Part shown: one piece after another, positions 13,328 to 56,404 of the stretch
How the letters are laid out: every line of letters starts with the position of its first letter
How positions within the stretch are numbered: the stretch's first letter is position 1
Virus record (IMG/VR): IMGVR_UViG_3300003890_000025
Location: 15,149 to 79,148 of that record
Strand: one strand, 5' to 3'
From: a virus
Length of the DNA stretch: 64,000 bases
Made by a program: the position numbers and the translations under genes
The notes under the pieces: model-generated
Databases searched by the model: none
What the model was told of the DNA's origin: nothing
What the model saw: the letters and a program-made list of their open reading frames with translations, nothing else

Positions 13328-15853
13328 TTATTGTGCTATATCTTCAATTATCGCGTGAGTACAAGTAATTGTATTATTAGCATTAGCCACACTCCATTGT
13401 GCGGTAATATCAAGAGTTTGTGCTGCTGTTGTGTCAAGGGTCTGGTTTGCCGTGTTAAATAACTCCATCTCAAATGGAGCCGAGAACGAACTCTGATGCA
13501 TCTTAACTGCTCCGCTACATATAACCTTACCAGAAGATCCTGCCTCAAAAACTTGTAATAGAAGCTCCATACTCCACATTCTATTAGTTAGTGCTGCCGT
13601 TTGAGTTATAGCTCCTGTAGAGGCTAGAACAGTAGAACCAGCTTTAAATTTGATAGTAAGGTCTGGAGGTGCTGCATCAGTAGAGTAGAAACCACTCATT
13701 TTGACTCTGAGTATTCGACCTTTACTTAAAGAGTCTGCTGGGATTTGTGCTGCAGTGGTGTTGTTGTTTATATATCCAATACCAAAAGTGTAAGAGGAAG
13801 TACCGCTAGATGTTGCGTTCTGAGACATCGTGATTTGAGTAGCACTATCTATTGACAATATGACAGTTCCAGATGGTATTCCTGTACCTGATATTGATCT
13901 TCCTTCTGACAGTAGGGCTGTGGACGATAACCCAGTTATGATTGGAGATCCGCTGGTTCGAGTACCTGAAATAGATAATTGACCAGGAAGTAATGAAGTC
14001 TCTGCGTTTGTATTACCAACAGCTCTGTAAGTAAACGAGCTAAGCATAGCAGAGCCCATTCTTTCTGTTAGTAGCTTAGTAGTAGTAGGAGCCATCTTAC
14101 AGCCATTGACTAAGAAGTAATAATTACTCGTACTGTCAATTTTCATTCTTGAGTCTGCTGGGCCTTCAAATAAAGCACCAGACCCAGTAATCTCACAGTC
14201 GTAAATTCCGTCGTTCTCTCCGTTTTGGGTAGCGTTTTGCCACAACAATCCATTAGAGATTAAAGAATCGCTGATATGCGACCACCTATTGATGGCGATA
14301 GCTCTTTCAAAACGACATCCTTTAGCATACACTAGTTCTACTGTATTAAATATCGCAAAGCTTGATCTATCAAGAGCTTGTCCGCAAAGGCTTCTTATAC
14401 GGGTATTGTATAATGACAGGTATAGATTCCCAGCACTAATACTGTCAGCCTCTATTCCTTTAGAACTAGCAGTAATAGCAACAGTTCCAGAAGCAGTCGC
14501 GTTTCTGGTCATAGTTATAGATGTTGCCGACACTATTGATCTAATATAAGTATTAGAGGGTATTCCTGTCCCCGTAATATTTTGTCCTACAGACAGCCTG
14601 GCTGTTGATGTAAGTCCAGTTATAACGTTTGATCCGCTAGTAGTGGTTCCATCCTGTCTACTTTTTCCGTTGTCATTACCCCAGACCATTACGTTACATA
14701 TTGAGCTATGTGTCGAGGATGACCCGTTCGTGGCTCCGTTGTCTAAGTACTTTAAAGAGCCGCTTAACATTATATTACGGTATATATCATGAGTATCTTT
14801 GCCCACGATGCTTGAGTTGACAGATACGATATGAAACGCTGATCGTATACCAGCTATGTTAGGCATTACAGGAAGTTGTACTTCAAAATCATGGTAAGGG
14901 TCTATTCCTGCATTAGGTGCCCAACTTGATCCTCCTGGAAAAGTTCCTAAGGACGCTGGGCCCATAAAAATTGTAGTAACGCCTTTACGGGTCAGATCAC
15001 AATAGAACTTATCTGCTATTGTAGGGAACGTAAGTGTTACCGTACCAGATGCTGTAGCGGCTTGGCTTAATACTAAAGACGAGTTTGCACTAGAGTAGGT
15101 CACGCTAACGACAGTAGTACCGTCTGGAATACCTGTACCTTTAACTGCGGCCCCAACCATTCCAGTATAGACATAATTAAGTCCAGTAACTGAAGTAGAT
15201 GTGTTAGTAGTAGTCCCTATTAACTGCATAGGGACTTCTACATTGAGCAGCTCGTTAGTTATAGATTGAGTTAAGCTCGCAGAAAGCGTGGCTCTCATCT
15301 TAGACGACACTACAGCTATAGCAGTAATAGTAGTTCCTTCAGGTATTCCTGCTCCAGATATCGAAGCCCCTACCGCGTTTTGTCCACTATATCCAAAATC
15401 TTCTACGTAATTATTCCCACTAGTACCAGTAGCCCTAACTTTAATTGCAGTAGATGCTGGAACGTATGTCTTACCAGGAGCCAAAACTACCCAGTTATTT
15501 GCGGCTTGTTCTGCTGTACCAGTGGCTCGTGGAATAGATGCGTAGGCGTCATTAAGATCGTTGAACTGCTGAACTCCATAGGAAAATACGTCATTAGTAG
15601 GAAATACTGTGATTTTATCAGCCCTAAGAGATCTGATGGAATTACCAGCTAATTTATTAAATGCTTGAATTACTGAGTCAGCGTCAGTAACTGTACCTGC
15701 TGACTGTGAGAATCCTTGTAGGATGGCATCCCTGACTCTAGCTTCAGTTAAATATAAATTACTAGAACCTTCCACTATGTCATCAGTACTTTGGATATCA
15801 TCAGCATAATCCAAATTACCTACTACTTGATTAAATGTAAACTTCTTAGCCAT
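13328..15853 (-). CDS. Fibre/spike protein with four GxGIP beta-modules
   Basis: Probable start MAKKF at 15853 (TAATG coupling); STDDIVEGSSNLYLTEARVR fibre motif; four ~60-aa repeats. Confidence 0.75.
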   Translation of the reverse strand: MAKKFTFNQVVGNLDYADDIQSTDDIVEGSSNLYLTEARVRDAILQGFSQSAGTVTDADSVIQAFNKLAGNSIRSLRADKITVFPTNDVFSYGVQQFNDLNDAYASIPRATGTAEQAANNWVVLAPGKTYVPASTAIKVRATGTSGNNYVEDFGYSGQNAVGASISGAGIPEGTTITAIAVVSSKMRATLSASLTQSITNELLNVEVPMQLIGTTTNTSTSVTGLNYVYTGMVGAAVKGTGIPDGTTVVSVTYSSANSSLVLSQAATASGTVTLTFPTIADKFYCDLTRKGVTTIFMGPASLGTFPGGSSWAPNAGIDPYHDFEVQLPVMPNIAGIRSAFHIVSVNSSIVGKDTHDIYRNIMLSGSLKYLDNGATNGSSSTHSSICNVMVWGNDNGKSRQDGTTTSGSNVITGLTSTARLSVGQNITGTGIPSNTYIRSIVSATSITMTRNATASGTVAITASSKGIEADSISAGNLYLSLYNTRIRSLCGQALDRSSFAIFNTVELVYAKGCRFERAIAINRWSHISDSLISNGLLWQNATQNGENDGIYDCEITGSGALFEGPADSRMKIDSTSNYYFLVNGCKMAPTTTKLLTERMGSAMLSSFTYRAVGNTNAETSLLPGQLSISGTRTSGSPIITGLSSTALLSEGRSISGTGIPSGTVILSIDSATQITMSQNATSSGTSSYTFGIGYINNNTTAAQIPADSLSKGRILRVKMSGFYSTDAAPPDLTIKFKAGSTVLASTGAITQTAALTNRMWSMELLLQVFEAGSSGKVICSGAVKMHQSSFSAPFEMELFNTANQTLDTTAAQTLDITAQWSVANANNTITCTHAIIEDIAQ

Positions 15854-25495: not shown

Positions 25496-26064
25496 AACTC
25501 ATAGCTATAGACCTAGAGCTTAATAACCCTAAAACTAATCAATCTATAATCCAAATAGGTGCAGTGGTAGGAGATTTAAATTTAAAAACTATTATTGAGG
25601 AATATAAAGCCAATATTCGACTACCTGAAGGTGAACTACTACAGGACTATATTAGTAATTTAACTAATATCAAGCCCCAAGAAGTAGAAGGTAACGGATT
25701 AAGTCTAAAAGAGGCTGTAAAAGACCTCCATAACCTAGTCACTAAATACGACTGTTTAAAATCGCCTATAACGTGGGGTGGAGGTGACTTGCCACTCTTA
25801 CGTCAAAAGTACCTAGAATCTCTCAATGGTGAGCCTTTAAACACGTTTAATTGGCCTTTTGGTTGGAGGGAGCTGGACGTAAAAACAGTCTACCAGACTA
25901 GGTGTTTAGCTTTAGGCCTAAAACCACAGGGGTCTTTAGCTAAAAGTATGACTAAACTAGGCCTGAGGTTTCAGGGGACTAAGCATAACGCATTAGATGA
26001 CGCTAAGAATACTTTATTATTATATTATAAGTTATTGGAGGATTATAAAATTAGATTATGTTAA
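25492..26064 (+). CDS. DEDDh 3'-5' exonuclease
   Basis: AIDLEL, IIQIGAV, GGDL, HNALDDA. Confidence 0.88.
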   Translation: MKLIAIDLELNNPKTNQSIIQIGAVVGDLNLKTIIEEYKANIRLPEGELLQDYISNLTNIKPQEVEGNGLSLKEAVKDLHNLVTKYDCLKSPITWGGGDLPLLRQKYLESLNGEPLNTFNWPFGWRELDVKTVYQTRCLALGLKPQGSLAKSMTKLGLRFQGTKHNALDDAKNTLLLYYKLLEDYKIRLC

Positions 26065-26459
26065 ACTTTAAAATTCAATCTTTTATAAATATAGTTTTAA
26101 TTTTTATTCTTATTAATCTTAATCAACACTGTAATAACACTGATAAAACACCGATAAAGCCACCAACGACAGAACCCAGTCCTACTCCAGAGCCTAAGCC
26201 TGAAGAAAATTTAGTAGCTAAAGGTAAAGCTATTTACCGTAGAAACTGTATTAGTTGTCATAATATTAACCCTAAGTTAGTTGGTTCTGTAGGGCCTGAT
26301 TTATACGGGTCTAGCTTAGATTTATTAAGGTCTAAAGTTATATATGGAACTTACCCAAAAGGCTATAAACCTAAACGTAATACTAAAATAATGCCTAAGT
26401 TCCCTAGTCTTGAACCTAATATAGAGGCTATAAAAGAGTTTCTAAATTCTGATTTATAG
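26058..26459 (+). CDS. Exported monoheme c-type cytochrome
   Basis: Hydrophobic N-terminus, Pro-rich linker, KGKAIYRRNCISCH heme motif, GPDL, distal MPKF. Confidence 0.85.
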   Translation: MLNFKIQSFINIVLIFILINLNQHCNNTDKTPIKPPTTEPSPTPEPKPEENLVAKGKAIYRRNCISCHNINPKLVGSVGPDLYGSSLDLLRSKVIYGTYPKGYKPKRNTKIMPKFPSLEPNIEAIKEFLNSDL

Positions 26460-30931: not shown

Positions 30932-32224
30932 ATGAATAATAATAATAATAATGATTTAGATAGAATAGTGGTTGGTGATCGAGTATATTTAGAAAACAAA
31001 ATCGGTCTAGAAGAACGACTCATAGAACATTTAACGCGAAGTGATTATTTAATTGTAACTGATATCAGAAATAACCTTTGCGATATAGTTACCCCGAACG
31101 GGACAAAAATAAACATTTTATTTTTACACAGATTTAAAAAAATACCTTCACTTAAAATTAATGAAGATACAAAAATTGTGTTAGAAAACAATAGGTTAAA
31201 ATTAATTACTAATAAAGAACACCTTTCAAGAAAAATTAACAAAAAACAGCAACTATTAATTAATGATTCGTTAAAGTATGGAAATAATTATGCTTTATCA
31301 TTTTTTGGTCATAAATTAATAAATCAAACATGGAAGATACTTATAGATAAATACAAAGATAAATCCGTTCTAAATAATATACCTCTAGCTACAGATGTAG
31401 AGGTACCTCCTATCTGCTACAGACCAACTAACGTCTTTTTATCTTTACAAAAGACGCTATACAATCCGCTCAGTGAAAAAAGACCGATTGGAAAGGATTT
31501 TGGACGTTACTTTGGAGTAGAAATCGAATGTTTCATACCTAATAAAAACTTCGACCAAATAGCTGAATTGTTAAGATCAAATAAAATAAAGAACGTCTCT
31601 CTTGCCAGAGATGGTTCTTTAAGCATTGACAAAGATTATTGGACTCCTGTCGAATTCAGAGTTTTAACAAAAATAAATGATTTTAATAATTTAGAAAAGT
31701 TATTGGATTTATTAAACTCTTGGGGTGCAGAGGTCAATAGTACTTGCGGGCTACACGTGCACCTAGATATGAGGCACCTAAAAAGTAAAGTCTCGGTTAA
31801 GAAGAGAGCTGAAAAATTGTTAAAATTTTTACCAATGCTCAAGGCGATGGTACCTAAAAGTCGTATTGAAAACGAATTCTGTAAACTTGATATAAGCAGT
31901 TTTGGAAATAGGTACGCAGCTATAAACCTGGAATCTTTTAAAAAACATAAAACCATTGAAGTACGACTTCACAGTGGGACTATTGATAAAACCAAAATCA
32001 TTAACTGGTGCAAGTTATTGTATATTATAATTAATTCAAAAATTGATAAATTTTATGATTTTGATTATAACATCACGAAAGCTTGTAAAATGTTAAAATT
32101 AAGTCAAGAATTGGAATTTTATGTTCGTTCTAGAATCCGAAAATTCAAGCCAATTCTTTTAGAAGTAGACCAGTTAAAAAATCAACCAAATCAGCCAATA
32201 GTACAACCTCACAATTCATTATAA
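30932..32224 (+). CDS. Putative amidoligase (COOH-NH2 ligase type 2)
   Basis: FGVEIEC, RDGSL, NSTCGLHVHLD, RYAAIN, TIEVRLHSGT. Confidence 0.85.
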   Translation: MNNNNNNDLDRIVVGDRVYLENKIGLEERLIEHLTRSDYLIVTDIRNNLCDIVTPNGTKINILFLHRFKKIPSLKINEDTKIVLENNRLKLITNKEHLSRKINKKQQLLINDSLKYGNNYALSFFGHKLINQTWKILIDKYKDKSVLNNIPLATDVEVPPICYRPTNVFLSLQKTLYNPLSEKRPIGKDFGRYFGVEIECFIPNKNFDQIAELLRSNKIKNVSLARDGSLSIDKDYWTPVEFRVLTKINDFNNLEKLLDLLNSWGAEVNSTCGLHVHLDMRHLKSKVSVKKRAEKLLKFLPMLKAMVPKSRIENEFCKLDISSFGNRYAAINLESFKKHKTIEVRLHSGTIDKTKIINWCKLLYIIINSKIDKFYDFDYNITKACKMLKLSQELEFYVRSRIRKFKPILLEVDQLKNQPNQPIVQPHNSL

Positions 32225-32251
32225 GCCGTTAGAAAGAAAGGACATAAAAAC

Positions 32252-33157
32252 ATGTGTAAAATTTTTGCAATGTCAAATACTAGTAAGTTAACCAGAAAAA
32301 ATTTCATAAATTTACTAAGAATAGTTCATCCAATTATAACACATTCTGAAGTAGATGGTTTTGGGTGGGCAGTTCTAGGTGAATCAGGTATTTACGGAGA
32401 AAAATATATCAATCCGACGGAATTTGACTTCAGAATTTTTAATAATGTTAAGGAAAATAAAATACTAAAAGAATTAATAAAAGAAGAGGCATCTTCATTT
32501 GGCCAGGCATCTAAACCGATAGGGCCGCTTTTAATCCACGGCAGAACTAGTACAAATGACAAAACATTAACAAACACGCATCCATTTATTAAAAATAATT
32601 GGACATTGATTCACAATGGAGTAGTAGATAATCTTGGAGAAACGTATATTATGGATTCTACTTGCGATTCGGAGCACCTTATACATTATCTTTCGTCAGG
32701 TGGAATAGAATCTATTGAAAAATACGTCAGTGGTTATTACGCCGTGGCAGCTATTGACCCTAACGGAAACTTGCATGTATTTAAAGACGACATAGCATCA
32801 CTCTATGTAGCTTATATAAAAACTATTGATAGCTTTATTTTCTCTACCACAAAGGACATGATTTCAATAACTTGTAAGAAAATGAAATGGGAATACACAG
32901 AAATAAATCCCATGAAAGGTAATTTTTATATGGTTATAAATAAAGAAAATGAATTATTATATAGTAGGAAAATAAAACCTTTGAAAGTTTATTACGACTC
33001 TACTAGACAAAAAGCGTCAATAGCCTTTAAGGGCAGTGTAGACACAATACTATCAGAGTCTATAAATGAAACTCATCACTTAAGTAGATTGTCTTTAAGA
33101 GATTTTGAAGACACAGCCTACTACACAACAGACAACTTTAATAAAAATAAAACATAG
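32252..33157 (+). CDS. Class II (Ntn) glutamine amidotransferase
   Basis: N-terminal MC, DGFG, HGRTST, NTHPF, HNGVV, CDSE. Confidence 0.88.
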   Translation: MCKIFAMSNTSKLTRKNFINLLRIVHPIITHSEVDGFGWAVLGESGIYGEKYINPTEFDFRIFNNVKENKILKELIKEEASSFGQASKPIGPLLIHGRTSTNDKTLTNTHPFIKNNWTLIHNGVVDNLGETYIMDSTCDSEHLIHYLSSGGIESIEKYVSGYYAVAAIDPNGNLHVFKDDIASLYVAYIKTIDSFIFSTTKDMISITCKKMKWEYTEINPMKGNFYMVINKENELLYSRKIKPLKVYYDSTRQKASIAFKGSVDTILSESINETHHLSRLSLRDFEDTAYYTTDNFNKNKT

Positions 33158-37405: not shown

Positions 37406-38413
37406 ATGCTTATACAGTCTATTTTCCTAGACACTTTAACTAGAGAAAGTAAAGAAGGTTATTTAGATTTAAGGTTTGGTAATCCTGGGTTCTTATTTAA
37501 ATTTTGGGATATTTACAACGAATCTGTTAACCTTGTATCTAAGGGTAGTAATATGTCATATTTACCTACTCATTTAGAAGCAGAGTTAGAATCTAAAATA
37601 CTAGAATTGCATAAAAAAACAGGTAATCTACCCACCCATAAGCCGTATGTAGTATTTGGTAACGGAGCTACACAGCTTATTCATGCTATATTCCTAGTAA
37701 TGAGAGAATTAGGTATAACTAGAGTTAACTTCGAGCCGCCATACTATCCAAGATTTATGTCATTAGCGGAACTTAGTGATCTCAAATACTCTAAAACAGC
37801 AACAAAGAATACCTGTGAACTAATTACTAGTCCTAATAACCCTGATTGTCATTTAAGCTTACCCAAAGAAAATAAGCCTGATCATCATGTTATATATGAC
37901 CTAACTTATAATTGGCCACATTATACTGAAACAGTACATAACTATGATAACTATATATCAATATACTCATTAGGTAAGTTATCAGGGCACGCTAGTACTA
38001 GGATAGGGTGGGCACTGGTACCAGACCCTAAAATAGCTAGTAGAATAGCTTATTACGTTGAAATACTGACTAATGGTACTAGTGCAGATGCTATAAAACA
38101 TGCTATTAGTATAATAGATCATATAAACATTCATCATTCAGAATTTTTCCAATTAGGTAAGTCTGAGCTGAATAAAAGATGGATAATAATTAATCAATTA
38201 CTTAGTAAAAACAATTCTATTAAAATAGAATCCAATTCTGGTATGTTTTTATATGGTAAGTATTTAAATAGTCGTGATTATTGGGATGATAATAAGATAC
38301 AGGTAGTTAATGGTGACATGCTTGGAGTGTCAAAAGATTACTTTAGAGTAAATATAGGTGGTACTATAGAACAGTTTAATGAATTTATAAAAAGAGTGAA
38401 AGGATCTTTTTAG
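37406..38413 (+). CDS. Fold-type I PLP enzyme, TAA1/alliinase-like
   Basis: VVFGNGATQL, PPYY, ELITSPNNPD, YDLTYNWPHYT, SLGKLSGHASTRIGWALV. Confidence 0.8.
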   Translation: MLIQSIFLDTLTRESKEGYLDLRFGNPGFLFKFWDIYNESVNLVSKGSNMSYLPTHLEAELESKILELHKKTGNLPTHKPYVVFGNGATQLIHAIFLVMRELGITRVNFEPPYYPRFMSLAELSDLKYSKTATKNTCELITSPNNPDCHLSLPKENKPDHHVIYDLTYNWPHYTETVHNYDNYISIYSLGKLSGHASTRIGWALVPDPKIASRIAYYVEILTNGTSADAIKHAISIIDHINIHHSEFFQLGKSELNKRWIIINQLLSKNNSIKIESNSGMFLYGKYLNSRDYWDDNKIQVVNGDMLGVSKDYFRVNIGGTIEQFNEFIKRVKGSF

Positions 38414-38520
38414 TATTTACAACTATAATTCAATAAGGTAGTATATTATTAGTTTAGTGATTTAAATTAATTATAAGTAAAATATAATAGTTTTAGATAA
38501 ATAAAAATAAAAGAAAGGAA

Positions 38521-38841
38521 ATGAATATGGAAAAAACAAATAGTTTAATAGGAAAACCAGTAATAGTAAGAGCAAATGTGGCGGGGGTGCACGCAGGAAT
38601 TTTAGATTCCCTAGATGGAACTGCTGCCACCTTAAAAAACGCATACCGTCTTTGGAGAGTATATACTCGCGACAAGTCTGGCTCTATTTCGGACGTAGCT
38701 GCTAACGGATTAAGGCCAGATGCACAACACTCTGTTGGTACCATGCTCGAAACTGTAGTGATTGTTAATCCACCAGGATTAGAAATTGCACAAATGACAC
38801 AAGATGCGTATGACGGTCTTAAGGATTGGGCTGGAAAATGA
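38521..38841 (+). CDS. DUF6948-like protein
   Basis: VIVRANVAGVHAG...LKNAYRLW; followed by a Gly-rich ORF as is usual for this family (from memory). Confidence 0.6.
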   Translation: MNMEKTNSLIGKPVIVRANVAGVHAGILDSLDGTAATLKNAYRLWRVYTRDKSGSISDVAANGLRPDAQHSVGTMLETVVIVNPPGLEIAQMTQDAYDGLKDWAGK

Positions 38842-39485
38842 CAATAATTGACGGCTACGGCTCTGGCGATGGCTCTGGTTCTGGCTCTGGTTCTGGGTAT
38901 GGTTATGGCTATGGCTCTGGCGATGGCGATGGCTCTGGTTCTGGCTCTGGTTCTGGCCACGGATCTGGCTATGGCGATGGCAATGGCAATGGCTTTGGCT
39001 ATGGCTATGGATCTGGCGATGACTATGGCGATGGCTTCGGAAAAAAGAAAGATTCGGTTGTAATCTATTTTAGGGACGGCTTAGAGTTAAAAATAGATGC
39101 CTTACCTCAAATATCAAAAACTAGAGACGGGCATATCGTAGAGCGATACACCATTAACGGTATAGAGGGGTTTTTCGTAACAATTGCAGGAACACCATAT
39201 TGCGCTCATGGCTCTACATTATCGCAAGCAATATCAGACGCTATCTGGAAAGATGAGTCAAAAAGGCCGTCACTTGAATCGTTAAAACAAGAAATAATTT
39301 CATCTGGTAAAGATAGACTTATAACGCTAAAAGAGTTTCAATTATTAACTGGAGCGTGTACTGAAGGTTGTCGAATCGCCTTGAATAAAAAGGGTCTCAG
39401 TGGAAATCCGATGACAGCCAATGATATATATAAACACTTCCCCGAATGGGGGGAAAAACTTTTAAATATTCTTGGATGGAGATAA
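38838..39485 (+). CDS. Protein with G-x Gly-rich repeats
   Basis: GYGSGDGSGSG repeats from hexamer repeats at ~38851-39040; ATGA coupling at 38838. Confidence 0.7.
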   Translation: MTIIDGYGSGDGSGSGSGSGYGYGYGSGDGDGSGSGSGSGHGSGYGDGNGNGFGYGYGSGDDYGDGFGKKKDSVVIYFRDGLELKIDALPQISKTRDGHIVERYTINGIEGFFVTIAGTPYCAHGSTLSQAISDAIWKDESKRPSLESLKQEIISSGKDRLITLKEFQLLTGACTEGCRIALNKKGLSGNPMTANDIYKHFPEWGEKLLNILGWR

Positions 39486-39490
39486 TAAAA

Positions 39491-39670
39491 ATGGCTTGTA
39501 ATGAACACTCTTGCGATGACTGTGGTTTCCGTGATTGGGATAATTTGATCTGGAAAGAATGTCCACAATGTGGAAGTAAAAATGTCGGTAACTTTTTTGA
39601 CGAAGATGGATGGTGGCACCCATACGACGACGATGATGATGACGACGATGGTTGGAGGCGTGTTTGTTGA
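39491..39670 (+). CDS. Small Zn-ribbon protein with acidic tail
   Basis: CDDC...CPQC, poly-Asp. Confidence 0.55.
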   Translation: MACNEHSCDDCGFRDWDNLIWKECPQCGSKNVGNFFDEDGWWHPYDDDDDDDDGWRRVC

Positions 39671-39681
39671 TTAAGGAGAGG

Positions 39682-40410
39682 ATGAATGGCCTGGATTTAT
39701 TTAGCGGAATCGGCGGACTTTCAATTGCCTTGTCTAAATGGGTTAAAACAGTTGCTTATTGTGAGCGAGACCGATATGCACAAGCGGTTCTTTTGTCCCG
39801 TATGCAAGACGGAGCACTTGATAGAGCGCCGATTTGGGATGACGTTCGAGCCTTGCGAGGCGAAACTTTGCCCACAATCGACATTATCTTCGGAGGGTTC
39901 CCATGCCAAGACATCAGCACTGCTGGTCGCGGAGCTGGCTTGGCAGGAGAGCAGAGCGGTCTTTTCTTTGAGCTGCTTCGTTTGGTCAAAGAGGTCAAGC
40001 CCAGTTTCGTCTTCTTGGAAAACGTCCCAGCCATTAGAACTAGAGGTCTTCTTACGATCGTCGATGAATTTACAAAAGTGGGGTATGACTGCCGGTGGAC
40101 GTGTCTCACTGCCAAGAGCGTTGGAGCCCCCCACAGGAGAGAGAGGTGGTTCTTGTTGGCCTACTCCGTGTGCAAGGGATTGGAAGGATTCAGGGAGTTA
40201 CGAGAAGTTATTGAAACGGAAGGAGAGGCACAGCGACTCACTACCGATGGCAGTAAGCAGAGCCGAAAAACGTGGTGGGAGAGTGAACCCAGTGTTTGTC
40301 GAGTGGTTAATGGGGTTCCTAACTGGGTGGACAGAATTAAATGCCTTGGTAACGCAGTGGTACCACAGCAAGCAGAAGAAGCGTTTATAAAATTACTTAA
40401 ATTACAATAA
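39682..40410 (+). CDS. C5-cytosine DNA methyltransferase, alpha polypeptide
   Basis: DLFSGIGG, GGFPCQ, LENV, HRRERWF, LGNAV; very short variable region; no motif IX. Confidence 0.9.
   Translation: MNGLDLFSGIGGLSIALSKWVKTVAYCERDRYAQAVLLSRMQDGALDRAPIWDDVRALRGETLPTIDIIFGGFPCQDISTAGRGAGLAGEQSGLFFELLRLVKEVKPSFVFLENVPAIRTRGLLTIVDEFTKVGYDCRWTCLTAKSVGAPHRRERWFLLAYSVCKGLEGFRELREVIETEGEAQRLTTDGSKQSRKTWWESEPSVCRVVNGVPNWVDRIKCLGNAVVPQQAEEAFIKLLKLQ
39686..40390 (+). CDS. C5-methyltransferase beta polypeptide in +1 overlapping frame
   Basis: 234-codon open frame inside alpha; WPTPCARDWKD and NPVFVEWLMGF..GWT (TRD/motif IX-like), as in M.EcoHK31I beta. Confidence 0.75.
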   Translation: MAWIYLAESADFQLPCLNGLKQLLIVSETDMHKRFFCPVCKTEHLIERRFGMTFEPCEAKLCPQSTLSSEGSHAKTSALLVAELAWQESRAVFSLSCFVWSKRSSPVSSSWKTSQPLELEVFLRSSMNLQKWGMTAGGRVSLPRALEPPTGERGGSCWPTPCARDWKDSGSYEKLLKRKERHSDSLPMAVSRAEKRGGRVNPVFVEWLMGFLTGWTELNALVTQWYHSKQKKRL

Positions 40411-45632: not shown

Positions 45633-46127
45633 ATGAGTAAAGTTTATACTAAAACTGGAGATGACGGTCAAAGTAGTATAAAAGGCTGTAGATTAAATAA
45701 AAAATCTCCTGTATTTGACGCTATTGGTGATATTGATGAATTAGCTGGATGGATAGGGTTATTAAATACGGATAACTATTTAACAGACATACAAGAGGCT
45801 CTATTTGAAATAGGAGCCTTTTTAGCTGGTTACGGAGAATTCTCAAGGGACTCTAATCAGCTAGAATATCTAATAGATGAGGCTTATAATAAACTACCTA
45901 CTTTGAGAGCATTTATAATACCCACTGGACAATTACAGTCACAGTGGTTTATAGCTAGAGCTGTTTGCAGAAGAGCTGAACGTAGCGTAGAGGGACTAGA
46001 GTCTTGTAAGGGAGTAAAAGGTTATTCAAAAGTACTATCATATTTAAATAGGTTATCAGATCTACTTTTTATAAAAGGGTATGAGTCTAATCCAAACGCT
46101 AAGTTATGGATTTCTAATAAAGATTAA
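45633..46127 (+). CDS. PduO-type cob(I)alamin adenosyltransferase
   Basis: VYTKTGDDG, GDIDEL, ARAVCRRAER, YLNRLSDLLF. Confidence 0.92.
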   Translation: MSKVYTKTGDDGQSSIKGCRLNKKSPVFDAIGDIDELAGWIGLLNTDNYLTDIQEALFEIGAFLAGYGEFSRDSNQLEYLIDEAYNKLPTLRAFIIPTGQLQSQWFIARAVCRRAERSVEGLESCKGVKGYSKVLSYLNRLSDLLFIKGYESNPNAKLWISNKD

Positions 46128-53596: not shown

Positions 53597-56404
53597 CTAT
53601 TCTAATATACAAGCTCCACCAACACAAGCTAATAGCTCTGTTCTATTGGTATTATCTTGATCTTCCTTAACCTCTTTTAAGTCTATTTCCTTAACTAATT
53701 TAGACATTTGTTCATAAGTTTCCTTAGAACACTCTTCAAACGGAGCCTGTTTATAAGTACCTCCGTCGTATGGTAATAAACTAATGCCTGAATATAAATC
53801 TCTATATTCCCACATAGAATCTCTTAAAGAATCCCATTCATCCTCTTTAACAGATATAGTTACTGACACATTGTGTCTGTTGTCTCCTGACCTATGGCCA
53901 TGAGCCACCCAGTTACGATTATACATAAGTGCCCTGTTTAATAGACTTAAAGCCGTCTCCTTCTCTCTAACTATAGCCCCTTCTGGACTTTCTTGAGGTA
54001 TGCTGACAACTACCCCACTAGCACTCATTATATCCTCTTCTACTAATTCAGGAATTACGTTTTTAAGGTAAATGGCTAGAGCATCATCTTTATTCATTCT
54101 AATTCTTCTTATATAATAAGGTGCGTGTCTAGCATGAATACCACTAGATGATTGAAGAACACAACTGGCTGATCCTTCTGGTTTAATAGTAGTTGATCTA
54201 GCAGAAAGATTAATGCCTAATTTCTTTGCGTATTTTTCATTAACCTCTAGTACTAGATCAGCTCCTTTTCTTAGCATTTCAGCATTTATTATACCTCTAC
54301 CATCTGCAATACCTGTGAAACTAACTCCCAATAGAGCCTCTCTTTCTGTGGTCTGTTTCCATATAGGCCTTAAGTAATGAAAATCTGTGTAACTCGCTTG
54401 TAAAGTACCAATTAATGCCGCTGCATAAATCCTATTATAGAAGTCTTTTTCTGACTCTATACCAGTCTGATTAATTGTAGTTAAGTTGCAGAATTGATTT
54501 GGATTTAGGGAAATTTCGTGGCATTGTCCAGTTATTACTCCGTTAAATATTCCCAAGTGTCTTTTAGGCTCATTAAAACAGTATACAGTCTCAGCTACTC
54601 CTGACTCAACAATATTAGAGACAACTACGAACTGTGAGGCATCTCTATTTGGATGTTTGTCAAATGTCATCCTTTCACAATGTAATCCCAATGATTTTAA
54701 GTGCTGTATTTGTTCAGCTCCGATACAAATTCTTCTGGCGTCTTGGCAATGATAGAGTTTACTTTCTTCCTTATGGTCAGGTAAATATCTCATACCATCC
54801 TTCTGAACAAGCATTATCTTAGACTGTACTCCTAGCGTAGATAACATAGCTTGTAGATTATTAAGGAATTGAAAATTTACAGAAGTTAATTGAAGTCCTC
54901 CGTCCTTTAGCTCTGTACCATCTCCATCGAATAGTCCAGATAACCAATCAATTCTTGACTTAATACTATAATTAATAGGTACGAAGCTTTTTGACATAGG
55001 AACGTTATTTAATACAACTCTATATCTCTTATTGTCCTCTTCCCACTTAACTGACTTCTTGTCCTGTATACGTTCAAGACATGCGGCTTTTGAAGCATAT
55101 ACATATAAGGTCTTACTCATCTCAATACCTTCAGCAGAAATAAATCCTTGGGTATAAGCATTATTTAACTCTTTAGTAAACTCCAGGACAGGGAAATCGT
55201 GCTTAATGAGCTTCATCCCTATTTCTAAGTCTTTAGCTTCAACTACCTTAGTTCCACCATAACAGTTTGTAGAAATATGAAACTTATGATATTTGGTGCA
55301 AGTTATTGAACGACCGTCACTAAAAGATATTGTAAGTACTTCTTGGTTATATCCTGTAACTTTAGGAGTTACTTTACTCCACTCAAATCCATTCCATATT
55401 TCTACCTCAGTATCTACTAAAGCATCAATACGTTCGTATCCACTCCTAGTTAAGATTTTTGTATCTCCCGTTACACAGGGATTAAATCCCCAATCTGTAT
55501 TATTAGTCCAACTAAACCCAGGTTCTCCTGAACCTGAATCTTTACACATTTTAAAGATATAATCAAATTCCTCCTTAGTTACTTCTGATCTAGGTAGTAT
55601 TGCGCTATTATTAGCTCTAGCTCTATAAGGATGCTTTTCCCACCATGCACCATGTTTGCATTTTAGCATTTCTTCATCATCTCTATCAAATAAAGAAATT
55701 AACGCAGCTCTTCTAATACCTCCTGCCAATACCGCGTCAGAAGTTATACAAACTATATCGTGTACTTCTATAGGTTTTAACTTCCTGCCTATAGCCTCTT
55801 TTAACTTTTCTTCTACCATCTTTAACATCGTTTTTAAAGGCTCTGGACCAGGTGCCCTAGCTCCAGTAGTAACTAAATAAGATCCTTTAGGCCTTACTGA
55901 TCTAAAGTCAAATTCAGGTCTAATCTTTCCAAAGAAGTAGGCTTCGATTAAAGTGTTTAGGGCTTCTGCCCAACCTTGTATGGAATCATGTACTATATAT
56001 ATTCCAGACTCTCTTGGTTTTTGTATTGTAGGTAGTTGCTGTACATGCTTCTTTTGTACCGAGAAGCCAAACCCTACTCCAGAGAGTAGTAGGAATAATG
56101 CTTCACTAAAAGCTTTAGAATTATCTATAGGAGCATAACTACAATTATATAACCTAGCATTATTAGTTAATATAGCGTCTCCAGAAAACTGTAGACTTCT
56201 CATAGAAGGCATTACTTTTAGCTCATGGACTCTTTGATAGGCTTTAATTATATCTCTGGATATTTTTGGAAATCTTTCTAAATGCATGGACATATTACGA
56301 TTTATGGTTTCCTCTAAACTTTCCCTACGTCCTAAATGTGGAATATATTTAGAATATGTTCTAAAAGCTACAATATCAGATAGTAATTTGTTGGAATTAT
56401 TCAA
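53597..56404 (-). CDS. nrdJ: Class II (AdoCbl-dependent) ribonucleotide reductase containing an intein
   Basis: PSMRSL, YNC, GGIRRAALISL, NP|C-HEI, TIKPEGS, C-terminal CVGGAC; TTG start with AAGGAGG. Confidence 0.9.
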   Translation of the reverse strand: MNNSNKLLSDIVAFRTYSKYIPHLGRRESLEETINRNMSMHLERFPKISRDIIKAYQRVHELKVMPSMRSLQFSGDAILTNNARLYNCSYAPIDNSKAFSEALFLLLSGVGFGFSVQKKHVQQLPTIQKPRESGIYIVHDSIQGWAEALNTLIEAYFFGKIRPEFDFRSVRPKGSYLVTTGARAPGPEPLKTMLKMVEEKLKEAIGRKLKPIEVHDIVCITSDAVLAGGIRRAALISLFDRDDEEMLKCKHGAWWEKHPYRARANNSAILPRSEVTKEEFDYIFKMCKDSGSGEPGFSWTNNTDWGFNPCVTGDTKILTRSGYERIDALVDTEVEIWNGFEWSKVTPKVTGYNQEVLTISFSDGRSITCTKYHKFHISTNCYGGTKVVEAKDLEIGMKLIKHDFPVLEFTKELNNAYTQGFISAEGIEMSKTLYVYASKAACLERIQDKKSVKWEEDNKRYRVVLNNVPMSKSFVPINYSIKSRIDWLSGLFDGDGTELKDGGLQLTSVNFQFLNNLQAMLSTLGVQSKIMLVQKDGMRYLPDHKEESKLYHCQDARRICIGAEQIQHLKSLGLHCERMTFDKHPNRDASQFVVVSNIVESGVAETVYCFNEPKRHLGIFNGVITGQCHEISLNPNQFCNLTTINQTGIESEKDFYNRIYAAALIGTLQASYTDFHYLRPIWKQTTEREALLGVSFTGIADGRGIINAEMLRKGADLVLEVNEKYAKKLGINLSARSTTIKPEGSASCVLQSSSGIHARHAPYYIRRIRMNKDDALAIYLKNVIPELVEEDIMSASGVVVSIPQESPEGAIVREKETALSLLNRALMYNRNWVAHGHRSGDNRHNVSVTISVKEDEWDSLRDSMWEYRDLYSGISLLPYDGGTYKQAPFEECSKETYEQMSKLVKEIDLKEVKEDQDNTNRTELLACVGGACILE
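54524..55477 (-). mobile_element. Intein (318 aa) with LAGLIDADG endonuclease, Gln C-terminus
   Basis: CVTGDTKIL start, CTKYHKF block B, WLSGLFDGDG, ends NGVITGQ/C at the catalytic Cys. Confidence 0.9.

Follow-up and report, generated by a model that had tools for sequence, protein, structure and literature searches.

Does a tailed phage encode an enzyme of the plant tryptophan aminotransferase/alliinase family? In plants, TAA is the first enzyme of the main auxin pathway, and alliinase, a secreted or vacuolar C-S lyase acting on cysteine sulfoxides, makes allicin in garlic. By one account (PMC11214133), Alliinase_C proteins are essentially limited to plants and some protists. The question is raised by an open reading frame in the window, a 64,000-nucleotide stretch (positions 15,149 to 79,148) of IMG/VR record IMGVR_UViG_3300003890_000025, which an earlier note had read as a phage-encoded, plant-type homologue of these enzymes.

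The source is an uncultured tailed-phage genome of about 79 kb, 95% complete by CheckV. It carries the phage hallmark genes TerL, portal, major capsid protein, PolA, primase-helicase, RNR, and Erf. The record is hence a genuine tailed-phage genome by its structural and replication genes and its completeness, and the gene is phage-encoded, as had been claimed. Among cultured phages the nearest is Silvanigrella phage MWH-Nonnen-W8red, with a TerL only 27% identical to the one encoded here. Structural and replication modules flank the gene on either side, with Erf upstream and DUF6948 and methyltransferase genes downstream; the DNA-metabolism genes around it comprise Erf, two methyltransferases, and an exonuclease. 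The phage also encodes a cobalamin adenosyltransferase, ThyX, dCTP deaminase, and dNMP kinase. No clear Shine-Dalgarno sequence precedes the gene and no tRNAs were found in the phage. Like other phage auxiliary (moron-type) genes, it lies in a viral genome, has viral genes on both sides, and recurs in other viruses.

A 335-aa ORF, running from ATG to stop, spans exactly 37406-38413 (+), and the opposite strand over this interval has no overlapping ORF of at least 60 aa. The five motifs quoted in the earlier note were all present in the translation: FGNPGFLFKFW (residues 24-34), VVFGNGATQL (82-91), ELITSPNNPD (138-147), YDLTYNWPHYT (164-174), and GKLSGHASTRIGWALVPD (190-207). HMMER alignments to 3bwn and 2hor showed that the TAA1/alliinase signatures set beside them in the note were essentially correct; the TAA1 counterparts in the alignment are VVGTGSTQL, ELVTSPNNPDG, HDFAYYWPHYT, and FSKITGHAGSRIGWALVKD. 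The features of the gene are as follows.

37406..38413, + strand: complete gene for a PLP-dependent fold-type I enzyme of the Alliinase_C family, short, without EGF domain, 335 aa (ORF, Pfam PF04864, PDB match, AF2/Foldseek).
37478..37507, + strand: N-terminal family motif G25-N-P-G-F-L-F-K-F-W34 (alignment to alliinase residues from 59 onward).
37559..37561, + strand: Tyr52, aligned with the Tyr of the alliinase MSYF motif (invariant in alignment A2).
37736..37756, + strand: P111-P-Y-Y-P-R-F117, with Y114 aligned with the Tyr of alliinase APFYPVF.
37826..37846, + strand: T141-S-P-N-N-P-D147 motif, with the invariant Asn145 corresponding to TAA1 N168 by alignment.
37898..37924, + strand: D165-L-T-Y168-N-W170-P-H-Y173, with Asp165 corresponding to TAA1 D191 and Tyr168 to TAA1 Y194; the match to our DNA search pattern begins at this stretch.
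37967..38011, + strand: S188-L-G-K191-L-S-G-H-A-S-T-R199-I-G-W202 (alignment to TAA1).
38345..38347, + strand: Arg314 in the F-R-V-N-I-G-G motif, invariant in 95 of 95 ingroup sequences.

The N-terminal stretch carries the family-specific motif G-[ND]-P-x-F-x3-[YF]-W, in which G25, P27, and W34 were nearly invariant among the 95 ingroup sequences; its counterparts are G-D-P..F..Y-W in TAA1 and S-G-D-G-L-F-L-E-E-Y-W in alliinase. Residue roles follow the published alliinase and TAA1 structures. We take the Tyr of alliinase MSYF to be Tyr92, a partner-subunit residue at the PLP phosphate, and the Tyr of APFYPVF is presumably the PLP-stacking Tyr165. Position 52 is Tyr in 66 of the 67 sequences of the short clade (described below) and in all plant sequences, and the position of Y114 is aromatic throughout the family alignment. 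Asp165 and Tyr168 occupy invariant PLP-binding positions in the sequence alignment, where W170 is invariant too. Lys191 stands at the position of the Schiff-base lysine (TAA1 Lys217, by residue count from the alignment), Arg199 (TAA1 R225) falls within the phosphate-binding motif, and K191, R199, and G201 were invariant in the family alignment. In TAA1, Lys217 is the PLP lysine (PMC9231625). Arg314, the presumed α-carboxylate-binding arginine, shares its column with an Arg that does not vary in the plant alliinase clade; its counterpart in alliinase would be Arg401, the role of which is cited in PMC4460571. Twelve columns (Y52, G87, P143, N145, P146, D165, Y168, W170, K191, R199, G201, R314) were invariant across 119 family members, plants included. 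Since the aligned PLP- and carboxylate-binding positions are kept, the enzyme is probably active.

When the protein was compared with profile HMMs, Pfam Alliinase_C (PF04864) scored 176.9 bits (E = 7.5e-52, cut-off 22), ahead by 113 bits of Aminotran_1_2 (PF00155; 63.7 bits), while NCBIfam hisC (TIGR01141) scored 30.8 bits, below its equivalog cut-off of 276.55. The comparison of Alliinase_C with Aminotran_1_2 that had been suggested as a check was thus decided for Alliinase_C. This profile matched 18 of the 18 clade members tested, with a best E of 3.6e-59 against 2.8e-18 for Aminotran_1_2. No match to the EGF-like domain PF04863 was found in the phage protein even at E up to 10. A sequence search of the PDB returned only TAA1 (E = 3.1e-31, 112 bits) and alliinase (E = 6e-27, 98 bits). 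The AF2 model of the phage protein had a pLDDT of 89.3. Its top Foldseek matches were 3bwn/3bwo and 1lk9 (E about 1e-23, TM 0.82-0.84), with generic class I aminotransferases at 1e-16 or worse, seven orders of magnitude behind; MalY- and PatB-type C-S lyases were among the matches. It is clear that the family resemblance is far beyond chance, and family membership together with viral carriage of the enzyme is extremely likely.

The phage protein belongs to a diverse clade of short proteins (290-360 aa) that lack the EGF domain and fall into at least 140 clusters at 50% identity. Such conservation over a diverse clade implies purifying selection. The gene was found on 37 viral contigs with a degenerate DNA pattern (20 in the first pass), 11 of which have TerL and portal within 10 kb. 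This pattern catches 153 of 190 family members; a narrower automatic pattern found nothing. The nearest ESM Atlas clusters were 83-99% Viruses/Uroviricota. Among prokaryotes (185,579 species, one genome each) three pattern matches gave two true copies. Where the source is known, the short clade is almost entirely of tailed-phage origin. The longer metagenomic forms were either of the eukaryotic EGF + Alliinase_C type or tandem duplications only. Some metagenomic homologues sit on contigs of great length, P0126 on one of 318 kb and P0217 on one of 571 kb. The suggestion that such a gene is rarely reported held good: neither the 50,697 deposited phage genomes nor PHROGs yielded a match, and no paper on a phage-borne member was found in the searchable literature. 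No conserved enzymatic partner gene was found among the neighbours of clade members; the neighbours seen (SprT-like metallopeptidase, M15 peptidase, RNR, exonuclease, M78 peptidase) vary between syntenic groups.

In the phylogenetic tree, the phage protein grouped with the eukaryotic TAA/alliinase family, and a branch with 96% SH-aLRT support separated this group from HisC, YbdL, MalY, and four other outgroups, E. coli HisC falling in the outgroup. The tree thus bears out the placement that had been anticipated, with TAA/alliinase and not with HisC, and HMM, fold search, and tree all agree on it. The description of the protein as plant-type needs to be narrowed. The protein is of the TAA/alliinase family, but it falls outside the plant TAA clade and also outside the eukaryotic clade as a whole, each of which has 98-99% support, and it lies in the separate, mostly viral short clade. 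This clade is the nearest known non-eukaryotic relative of the TAA/alliinase family, either as its sister or as a paraphyletic stem. A site-heterogeneous tree placed the eukaryotes within the short clade, with a Bdellovibrionales protein as nearest neighbour, but the AU test (p about 0.56-0.60) did not decide between nesting and a split into two sister clades, each monophyletic, and the latter was not rejected. An AU rejection of short-clade monophyly (p = 0.026) vanished with better searches and with the removal of three divergent viral sequences and two long outgroups, and we therefore do not claim that the eukaryotes are nested in the viral clade. With FastTree the root was unstable, MalY jumping to the eukaryotes. 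The relevance to the origin of the TAA family, which had also been put forward, is real because the short clade is the nearest non-eukaryotic relative, but by the AU test descent may have run in either direction. That the short, phage-dominated clade with its rare bacterial members was the source, or is the surviving reservoir, of the eukaryotic TAA/alliinase gene is a tentative proposal. If true, the viral sequences would be the long-missing close outgroup for rooting the TAA-versus-alliinase split.

The short clade has its own signature of conserved residues, as its alignment indicates. Arg116 is present in 61 of 67 short-clade sequences, the eukaryotic family members having S/T, V/M/L, or G/Q/A at this position. 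Compared with TAA-clade plants, the short clade has R116 for S/T, F117 for Y, N169 for Y, GMF279-281 for PAF, and N316 for S. Position 148 of the phage protein itself is Cys, whereas Gly (TAA1 G171) stands there in most of the family; among the 67 short-clade sequences it was Gly in 36, Asn in 21, Cys in three, and Ser in three.

Judging from the sequence, we regard the product as a cytoplasmic PLP-dependent enzyme of the Alliinase_C/TAA family that acts on its own and is catalytically intact; its gene would be an auxiliary (moron-type) one, placed among the early or middle genes of the phage. It would act as a homodimer on a free L-α-amino acid, forming an external aldimine from which Lys191 would take the C-α proton. 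Most likely it would, like TAA1, pass the amino group to a 2-oxo acid, and the phage could thereby redirect the amino-acid and 2-oxo-acid pools of the host during infection. Arg116 lies two residues past the equivalent of the PLP-stacking Tyr and may bind a second acidic group; this would suggest glutamate/2-oxoglutarate as co-substrate, and not the alanine/pyruvate of TAA1. We favour an aminotransferase as the main reaction, at somewhat short of an even chance. This choice is consistent with the position of the family within the class I aminotransferases, with TAA1 as top match and likewise free of an EGF domain, with the conservation of Arg116 in the short clade, and with the fact that the known lyase substrates are specialised Allium metabolites. 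Against it, the lead of TAA1 over alliinase is small (112 versus 98 bits, with equal Foldseek E-values), class I-fold enzymes switch readily between transamination and β-elimination, no partner gene or operon constrains the substrate, and Cys148 replaces the usual Gly.

A C-S (β-) lyase like alliinase, converting S-substituted cysteines to pyruvate, ammonia, and a thiol, persulfide, or sulfenate, is a possible though doubtful alternative. Its substrates would be cystine, cystathionine, S-alkyl-cysteines, or their sulfoxides, and the phage would gain pyruvate and nitrogen, or reactive sulfur. Garlic alliinase matched nearly as well as TAA1 (E = 6e-27, TM 0.82), every residue common to the two was kept, bacterial C-S lyases have the same fold, and action without co-substrate or partner fits the absence of conserved neighbours. 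However, the protein lacks the EGF domain that typifies the alliinase clade, alk(en)yl-cysteine sulfoxides are plant metabolites, no sulfur-metabolism genes were found near the gene, and no sequence feature separates lyase from transaminase. It is unlikely that the enzyme is a true tryptophan aminotransferase, supplying indole-3-pyruvate for auxin by which the phage would manipulate an alga- or plant-associated bacterial host. TAA1 is indeed the best match of solved structure, and the JGI automatic annotation calls some clade members L-tryptophan--pyruvate aminotransferase, but none of five phage genomes that encode the enzyme, four of which reach a completeness of 95% or more, has a gene for a second auxin step (YUCCA-like FMO, Pyr_redox_3, or TPP-dependent, IPDC-type). 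The protein moreover lies outside the plant TAA clade, its differences from TAA1 (R116, F117, N169, GMF279-281, N316) adjoin active-site motifs, and TAA1 itself is broad in specificity (PMC9231625). Quite improbable, in our estimate, is a role in nucleic-acid or cofactor modification, either as a PLP step on a base-appended amino acid or as a CobD-like decarboxylase, which would link to the B12-related genes of the phage. The setting among DNA-metabolism genes (Erf, two methyltransferases, exonuclease) and the cobalamin adenosyltransferase and RNR of the phage are in keeping with such a role. PLP enzymes do occur in thymidine hypermodification clusters, which also speaks for it, but no hallmark DNA-hypermodification genes were found in the phage, its ThyX, dCTP deaminase, and dNMP kinase are ordinary, and the genes next to it vary from one syntenic group to another; R314, the invariant carboxylate arginine, points to a free α-amino acid as substrate. 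We give hardly any credence to an ordinary host-acquired aminotransferase of the HisC/AspC type or a decaying, non-functional copy. Weak matches to hisC (31 bits) and Aminotran_1_2 (64 bits) could be read that way, yet the former is far from its cut-off of 277, Alliinase_C is ahead by 113 bits, and HisC, YbdL, and MalY were split off by the 96%-supported branch; the HisC/AspC-type origin was effectively ruled out on HMM scores, Foldseek ranking, and tree. Against decay, the frame is intact, every catalytic position is kept, and the spread of the clade over at least 140 clusters implies purifying selection.

What is new here is a large branch, previously undescribed and nearly all viral, whose match to TAA1 reaches E = 3e-31. 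For plant evolution it provides a much closer outgroup for the TAA/alliinase tree, and a viral or bacterial origin becomes a candidate. The auxiliary-gene repertoire of phages is extended by a PLP enzyme that had not been described, is widespread, and apparently needs no partner. Enzymology gains a compact form of the fold, 300-340 aa long and with its own signature, as an attractive target for separating transaminase from C-S lyase chemistry.

Among known systems, HisC, YbdL, and MalY/PatB share with the phage protein fold type I and the K, D, N, Y, R scaffold. These bacterial class I enzymes were much weaker Foldseek matches (1e-16 or worse, 13-17% identity) and lack the family motifs G-[ND]-P..F...W, W-P, and K..GH; the family pattern matched none of HisC, MalY, and YbdL. 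A prokaryotic form is that of a Bdellovibrionales MAG (HEX4925842.1, locus L027), one of only two prokaryotic copies in the 185,579 species genomes. It has the short form (321-346 aa; Alliinase_C 205 bits), but adjoins the eukaryotic clade and not the phage protein (85% SH-aLRT); its contig has 58% GC, and the adjacent genes, which encode a DUF4423/HTH regulator and a beta-helix protein, resemble cellular genes more than viral ones. The 'alliin lyase' of Thecamonas, the TAR-like protein of Acrasis, and EukProt transcripts are of the same family as the phage protein, and such non-plant eukaryotic proteins form with plants a clade that either is the sister of the short viral clade or lies inside it. 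They are 400-450 aa long, often have the EGF domain, carry NPTG in place of NPDG, and, unlike the short clade, lack R116 and the GMF motif. Garlic alliinase (EC 4.4.1.4; PDB 1LK9/2HOR) shares with the phage protein its catalytic domain and the positions of the conserved motifs (E = 6e-27; Foldseek E = 3e-23, TM 0.82). The alliinase clade has the N-terminal EGF-like domain PF04863, which the phage protein lacks, and the phage protein has no signal-like N-terminus, unlike the secreted or vacuolar alliinase. Arabidopsis TAA1 (EC 2.6.1.99; PDB 3BWN/3BWO) is the best match in both sequence and fold. The phage enzyme differs from it in being phage-encoded without a YUCCA partner in the phage genomes examined, in having only about 25-33% identity, and in being some 55 residues shorter (335 versus 391 aa). 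The two are nevertheless of the same length class, both lack the EGF domain, and they have in common the PLP-lysine (K217 in TAA1, K191 in the phage protein), NNPD, D..Y.WP.Y, and SK..GH...RIGWALV.

The gene under study is an uninterrupted reading frame of 335 codons, from ATG to stop:

37406-38413, plus strand: PLP-dependent enzyme of the Alliinase_C (PF04864) family

No sizeable ORF was found on the opposite strand of this interval. An AT-rich spacer of 31 nt separates the gene from the upstream ORF; no clear Shine-Dalgarno sequence was found in this gap, and no sigma-70-like or terminator-like signals rose above shuffles at the gene. The five motifs picked out in an earlier note were all located in the translation (residues 24-34, 82-91, 138-147, 164-174 and 190-207), and the TAA1 and alliinase signatures given there agreed closely with the real sequences in HMMER alignments to PDB 3bwn and 2hor.

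When the protein was searched against Pfam, Alliinase_C was the best match (E = 7.5e-52, 176.9 bits, versus 63.7 bits for Aminotran_1_2), and no EGF-like alliinase domain was found. The best NCBIfam match, hisC, scored 30.8 bits, below the cut-off of 276.55, and a search of PHROGs gave no matching family. By sequence, the only solved structures matched were Arabidopsis TAA1 (E = 3.1e-31) and garlic alliinase (E = 6e-27). An AlphaFold2 model made with 18 homologues was confident (pLDDT 89.3, pTM 0.88). With this predicted model as the query, Foldseek ranked TAA1 (3bwn/3bwo) and alliinase (1lk9) at the top (E ~1e-23, TM 0.82-0.84), followed after a gap by generic class I aminotransferases and C-S lyases (E = 1e-16 or worse, 13-17% identity). 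By the best HMM match and by a tree placement outside HisC/AspC, the preference of the earlier note for TAA1/alliinase over HisC/AspC holds. All the sequence and structure criteria tested assign the protein to Pfam Alliinase_C; it lies outside both the plant TAA clade and the EGF-bearing alliinase clade.

In an alignment of 119 sequences from plants, protists and the viral clade, twelve columns were invariant (Y52, G87, P143, N145, P146, D165, Y168, W170, K191, R199, G201, R314). These map to the motifs with which alliinase and TAA1 hold PLP and the alpha-carboxylate of the substrate, which makes the enzyme look catalytically competent and, judged from its sequence, built for a free L-alpha-amino acid. 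The residue roles in these motifs are those of the published alliinase and TAA1 structures. By counting along the HMMER alignment, K191 corresponds to TAA1 Lys217, the PLP Schiff-base lysine (PMC9231625); the role of alliinase Arg401 is cited in PMC4460571. Cys148 stands where Gly is usual (G171 in TAA1), in a column that is variable within the short clade, the mostly viral, EGF-less branch of 290-360 aa that includes this protein.

Residues of the short clade and of plants (numbering of the phage protein)
Position 116: Arg in the short clade (61/67); Ser/Thr or Val/Met/Leu in plants
Position 117: Phe in the short clade; Tyr in plants
Position 169: Asn in the short clade; Tyr in plants
Positions 279-281: G-M-F in the short clade; P-A-F or P-A-Y in plants
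Position 316: Asn in the short clade; Ser in plants

A word-seeded search returned ~35 unnamed metagenomic proteins (300-350 aa, 30-38% identity) and then plant TAR/alliinase proteins at 25-33%. An exhaustive profile search of 1.84 billion representatives gave 553 clusters with E no worse than 1e-30; the top ~140 were 290-360 aa long, and the first named below them were plant TARs and an Acrasis TAR-like protein. The closest ESM Atlas Alliinase_C clusters were 83-99% Viruses, mostly Uroviricota. An automatic pattern found 20 IMG/VR contigs. A degenerate DNA pattern, D..Y.W..K..G....R.GWA, recognizes 153 of 190 family members but not E. coli HisC, MalY or YbdL; it matched 37 viral contigs of 5-240 kb (~35 HMM-confirmed). 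Across 185,579 prokaryote species, each represented by one genome, it matched three stretches, two of them real. The first is on a Flavobacteriaceae MAG contig whose ORFs are small and unannotatable; the protein it encodes groups as sister to a viral copy. The second, on the Bdellovibrionales MAG contig DASUEL010000683.1 (6660-7700, minus strand; contig GC 58%), is a short form beside a DUF4423/HTH regulator and a beta-helix protein, neighbors of chromosomal, cellular appearance. No homologue was found in 50,697 deposited phage genomes. The description of the gene as rarely reported agrees with the full-text literature, where searches on alliinase and phage, K16903, and tryptophan aminotransferase with auxiliary metabolic genes gave nothing relevant.

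The window covers bases 15149-79148 of an IMG/VR virus record that is 79,148 bp long, with a CheckV completeness of 95%. The window encodes a large terminase, portal, major head protein, family A DNA polymerase, primase-helicase, RNR, Erf and a UvsX/RecA-like protein, and because of this terminase, portal, head and replication gene set its source is a tailed bacteriophage. Also present are two DNA methyltransferases, a GT2 glycosyltransferase, an amidoligase-GATase pair, ThyX, dCTP deaminase, dNMP kinase, cobalamin adenosyltransferase, and M15 and SLT wall hydrolases. The closest cultured phage by TerL infects Silvanigrella, at a TerL identity of merely 27%. Several other features were noted:

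26058-26459, plus strand: 133-aa ORF with cytochrome c domains (PF00034, E = 2.6e-7; PF13442, E = 5e-7), an unusual phage auxiliary gene
30932-33157, plus strand: amidoligase (PF12224) and class II glutamine amidotransferase pair (clusters 45 and 44), recurring in the related viral loci L016 and L018
38826-39485, plus strand: 219-aa ORF, its first ~70 residues a Gly/Ser/Asp/Tyr dipeptide-like repeat (GYGSGDGSGSG...)
38493-38960, minus strand: long ORF, a shadow of the repeat-bearing ORF
39652-40410, plus strand: C5 DNA methyltransferase region with two long overlapping frames (252 aa and 234 aa), the first matching phrog_363 over residues 9-248
45633-46127, plus strand: PduO-type cob(I)alamin adenosyltransferase (Pfam Cob_adeno_trans, E = 1e-34)
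53597-56404, minus strand: large RNR

The RNR of related phages (locus L002) carries a B12-dependent class II insertion domain. This, together with the co-occurrence of the adenosyltransferase and RNR, suggests that the activated cofactor of the phage RNR is provided by the phage itself.

The Alliinase_C gene lies in a plus-strand early or middle block, with Erf upstream and a DUF6948 gene, then the C5 methyltransferase, downstream. When the ORFs of 20 viral loci were clustered, several syntenic groups emerged. In most, the gene ends the early genes, directly before an M15 peptidase, small terminase-region genes, TerL and portal; in others it follows RNR, or precedes an M78 peptidase and exonuclease. 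No consistently co-occurring enzyme gene was found among these loci. Long metagenomic forms were either eukaryote-type EGF plus Alliinase_C proteins or tandem duplicates, and fusions are therefore uninformative on function. Two marine metagenome contigs carry ORFs of 880-910 aa with two tandem Alliinase_C domains and an EGF-like domain between them (L084:48-2780 and L085:1209-3851); these are probably protist genes.

The analyses show an intact, stand-alone, phage-borne PLP enzyme of the Alliinase_C family, conserved over a wide radiation. It would act as a homodimer on a free L-amino acid. We tentatively favor an aminotransferase as the main reaction, since transamination is the ancestral chemistry of the superfamily, the architecture is TAA1-like without an EGF domain, the known lyase substrates are Allium-specific, and the clade-specific Arg116 might bind a dicarboxylic co-substrate. 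A C-S/beta-lyase, for which alliinase is a nearly equal match and which requires no partner gene, is somewhat less likely.

TAA1 as the top match would fit a dedicated auxin-making role, but the second step of that pathway is not encoded: FMO-like, Pyr_redox_3 and TPP-enzyme genes were absent from five gene-carrying phage genomes (four at least 95% complete). We regard that role as improbable. Modification of DNA or a cofactor, to which only the genomic neighborhood points, had no hallmark genes that could be found, and is slightly more improbable still. An ordinary HisC/AspC enzyme or a dead gene is effectively excluded.

In a FastTree phylogeny of 212 sequences, with an unstable root, those from viral contigs were spread over several deep short-clade lineages and eukaryotes formed a single group. 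An IQ-TREE LG+C20 (PMSF) tree was made from 102 sequences with seven outgroups (E. coli HisC, YbdL and MalY, two MAG aminotransferases and two weak family relatives). The outgroups split off at 96% SH-aLRT, and eukaryotes, recovered at 99%, fell inside the short clade beside the Bdellovibrionales protein and a metagenomic homologue, P0126 (85%). When the short clade was constrained to be monophyletic, a fast LG+F+G4 analysis rejected the tree (AU p = 0.026). A repeat with better searches, which left out the two longest outgroups and three viral sequences of very high divergence, scored the free and the constrained tree as equal (delta lnL 0.13; AU p = 0.60 and 0.56). Two very large viral contigs, IMGVR_UViG_3300041416_000287 (240 kb) and IMGVR_UViG_3300050821_018050 (160 kb), carry very divergent copies (141 and 244 bits, respectively, against the clade profile) that attach close to the family-tree root and strongly influence rooting tests.

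The robust result, with the direction of descent either way, is that no known group is closer to the eukaryotic TAA/alliinase family than the viral short clade. Since the literature confines Alliinase_C essentially to plants and protists (PMC11214133), a viral branch of this size, with signature residues of its own, is a new form within this known family. The prokaryotic sequences in the debate on TAA origin show 25% identity at E about 1e-8 (PMC4754409); the viral short clade is far closer to the eukaryotic family than these.
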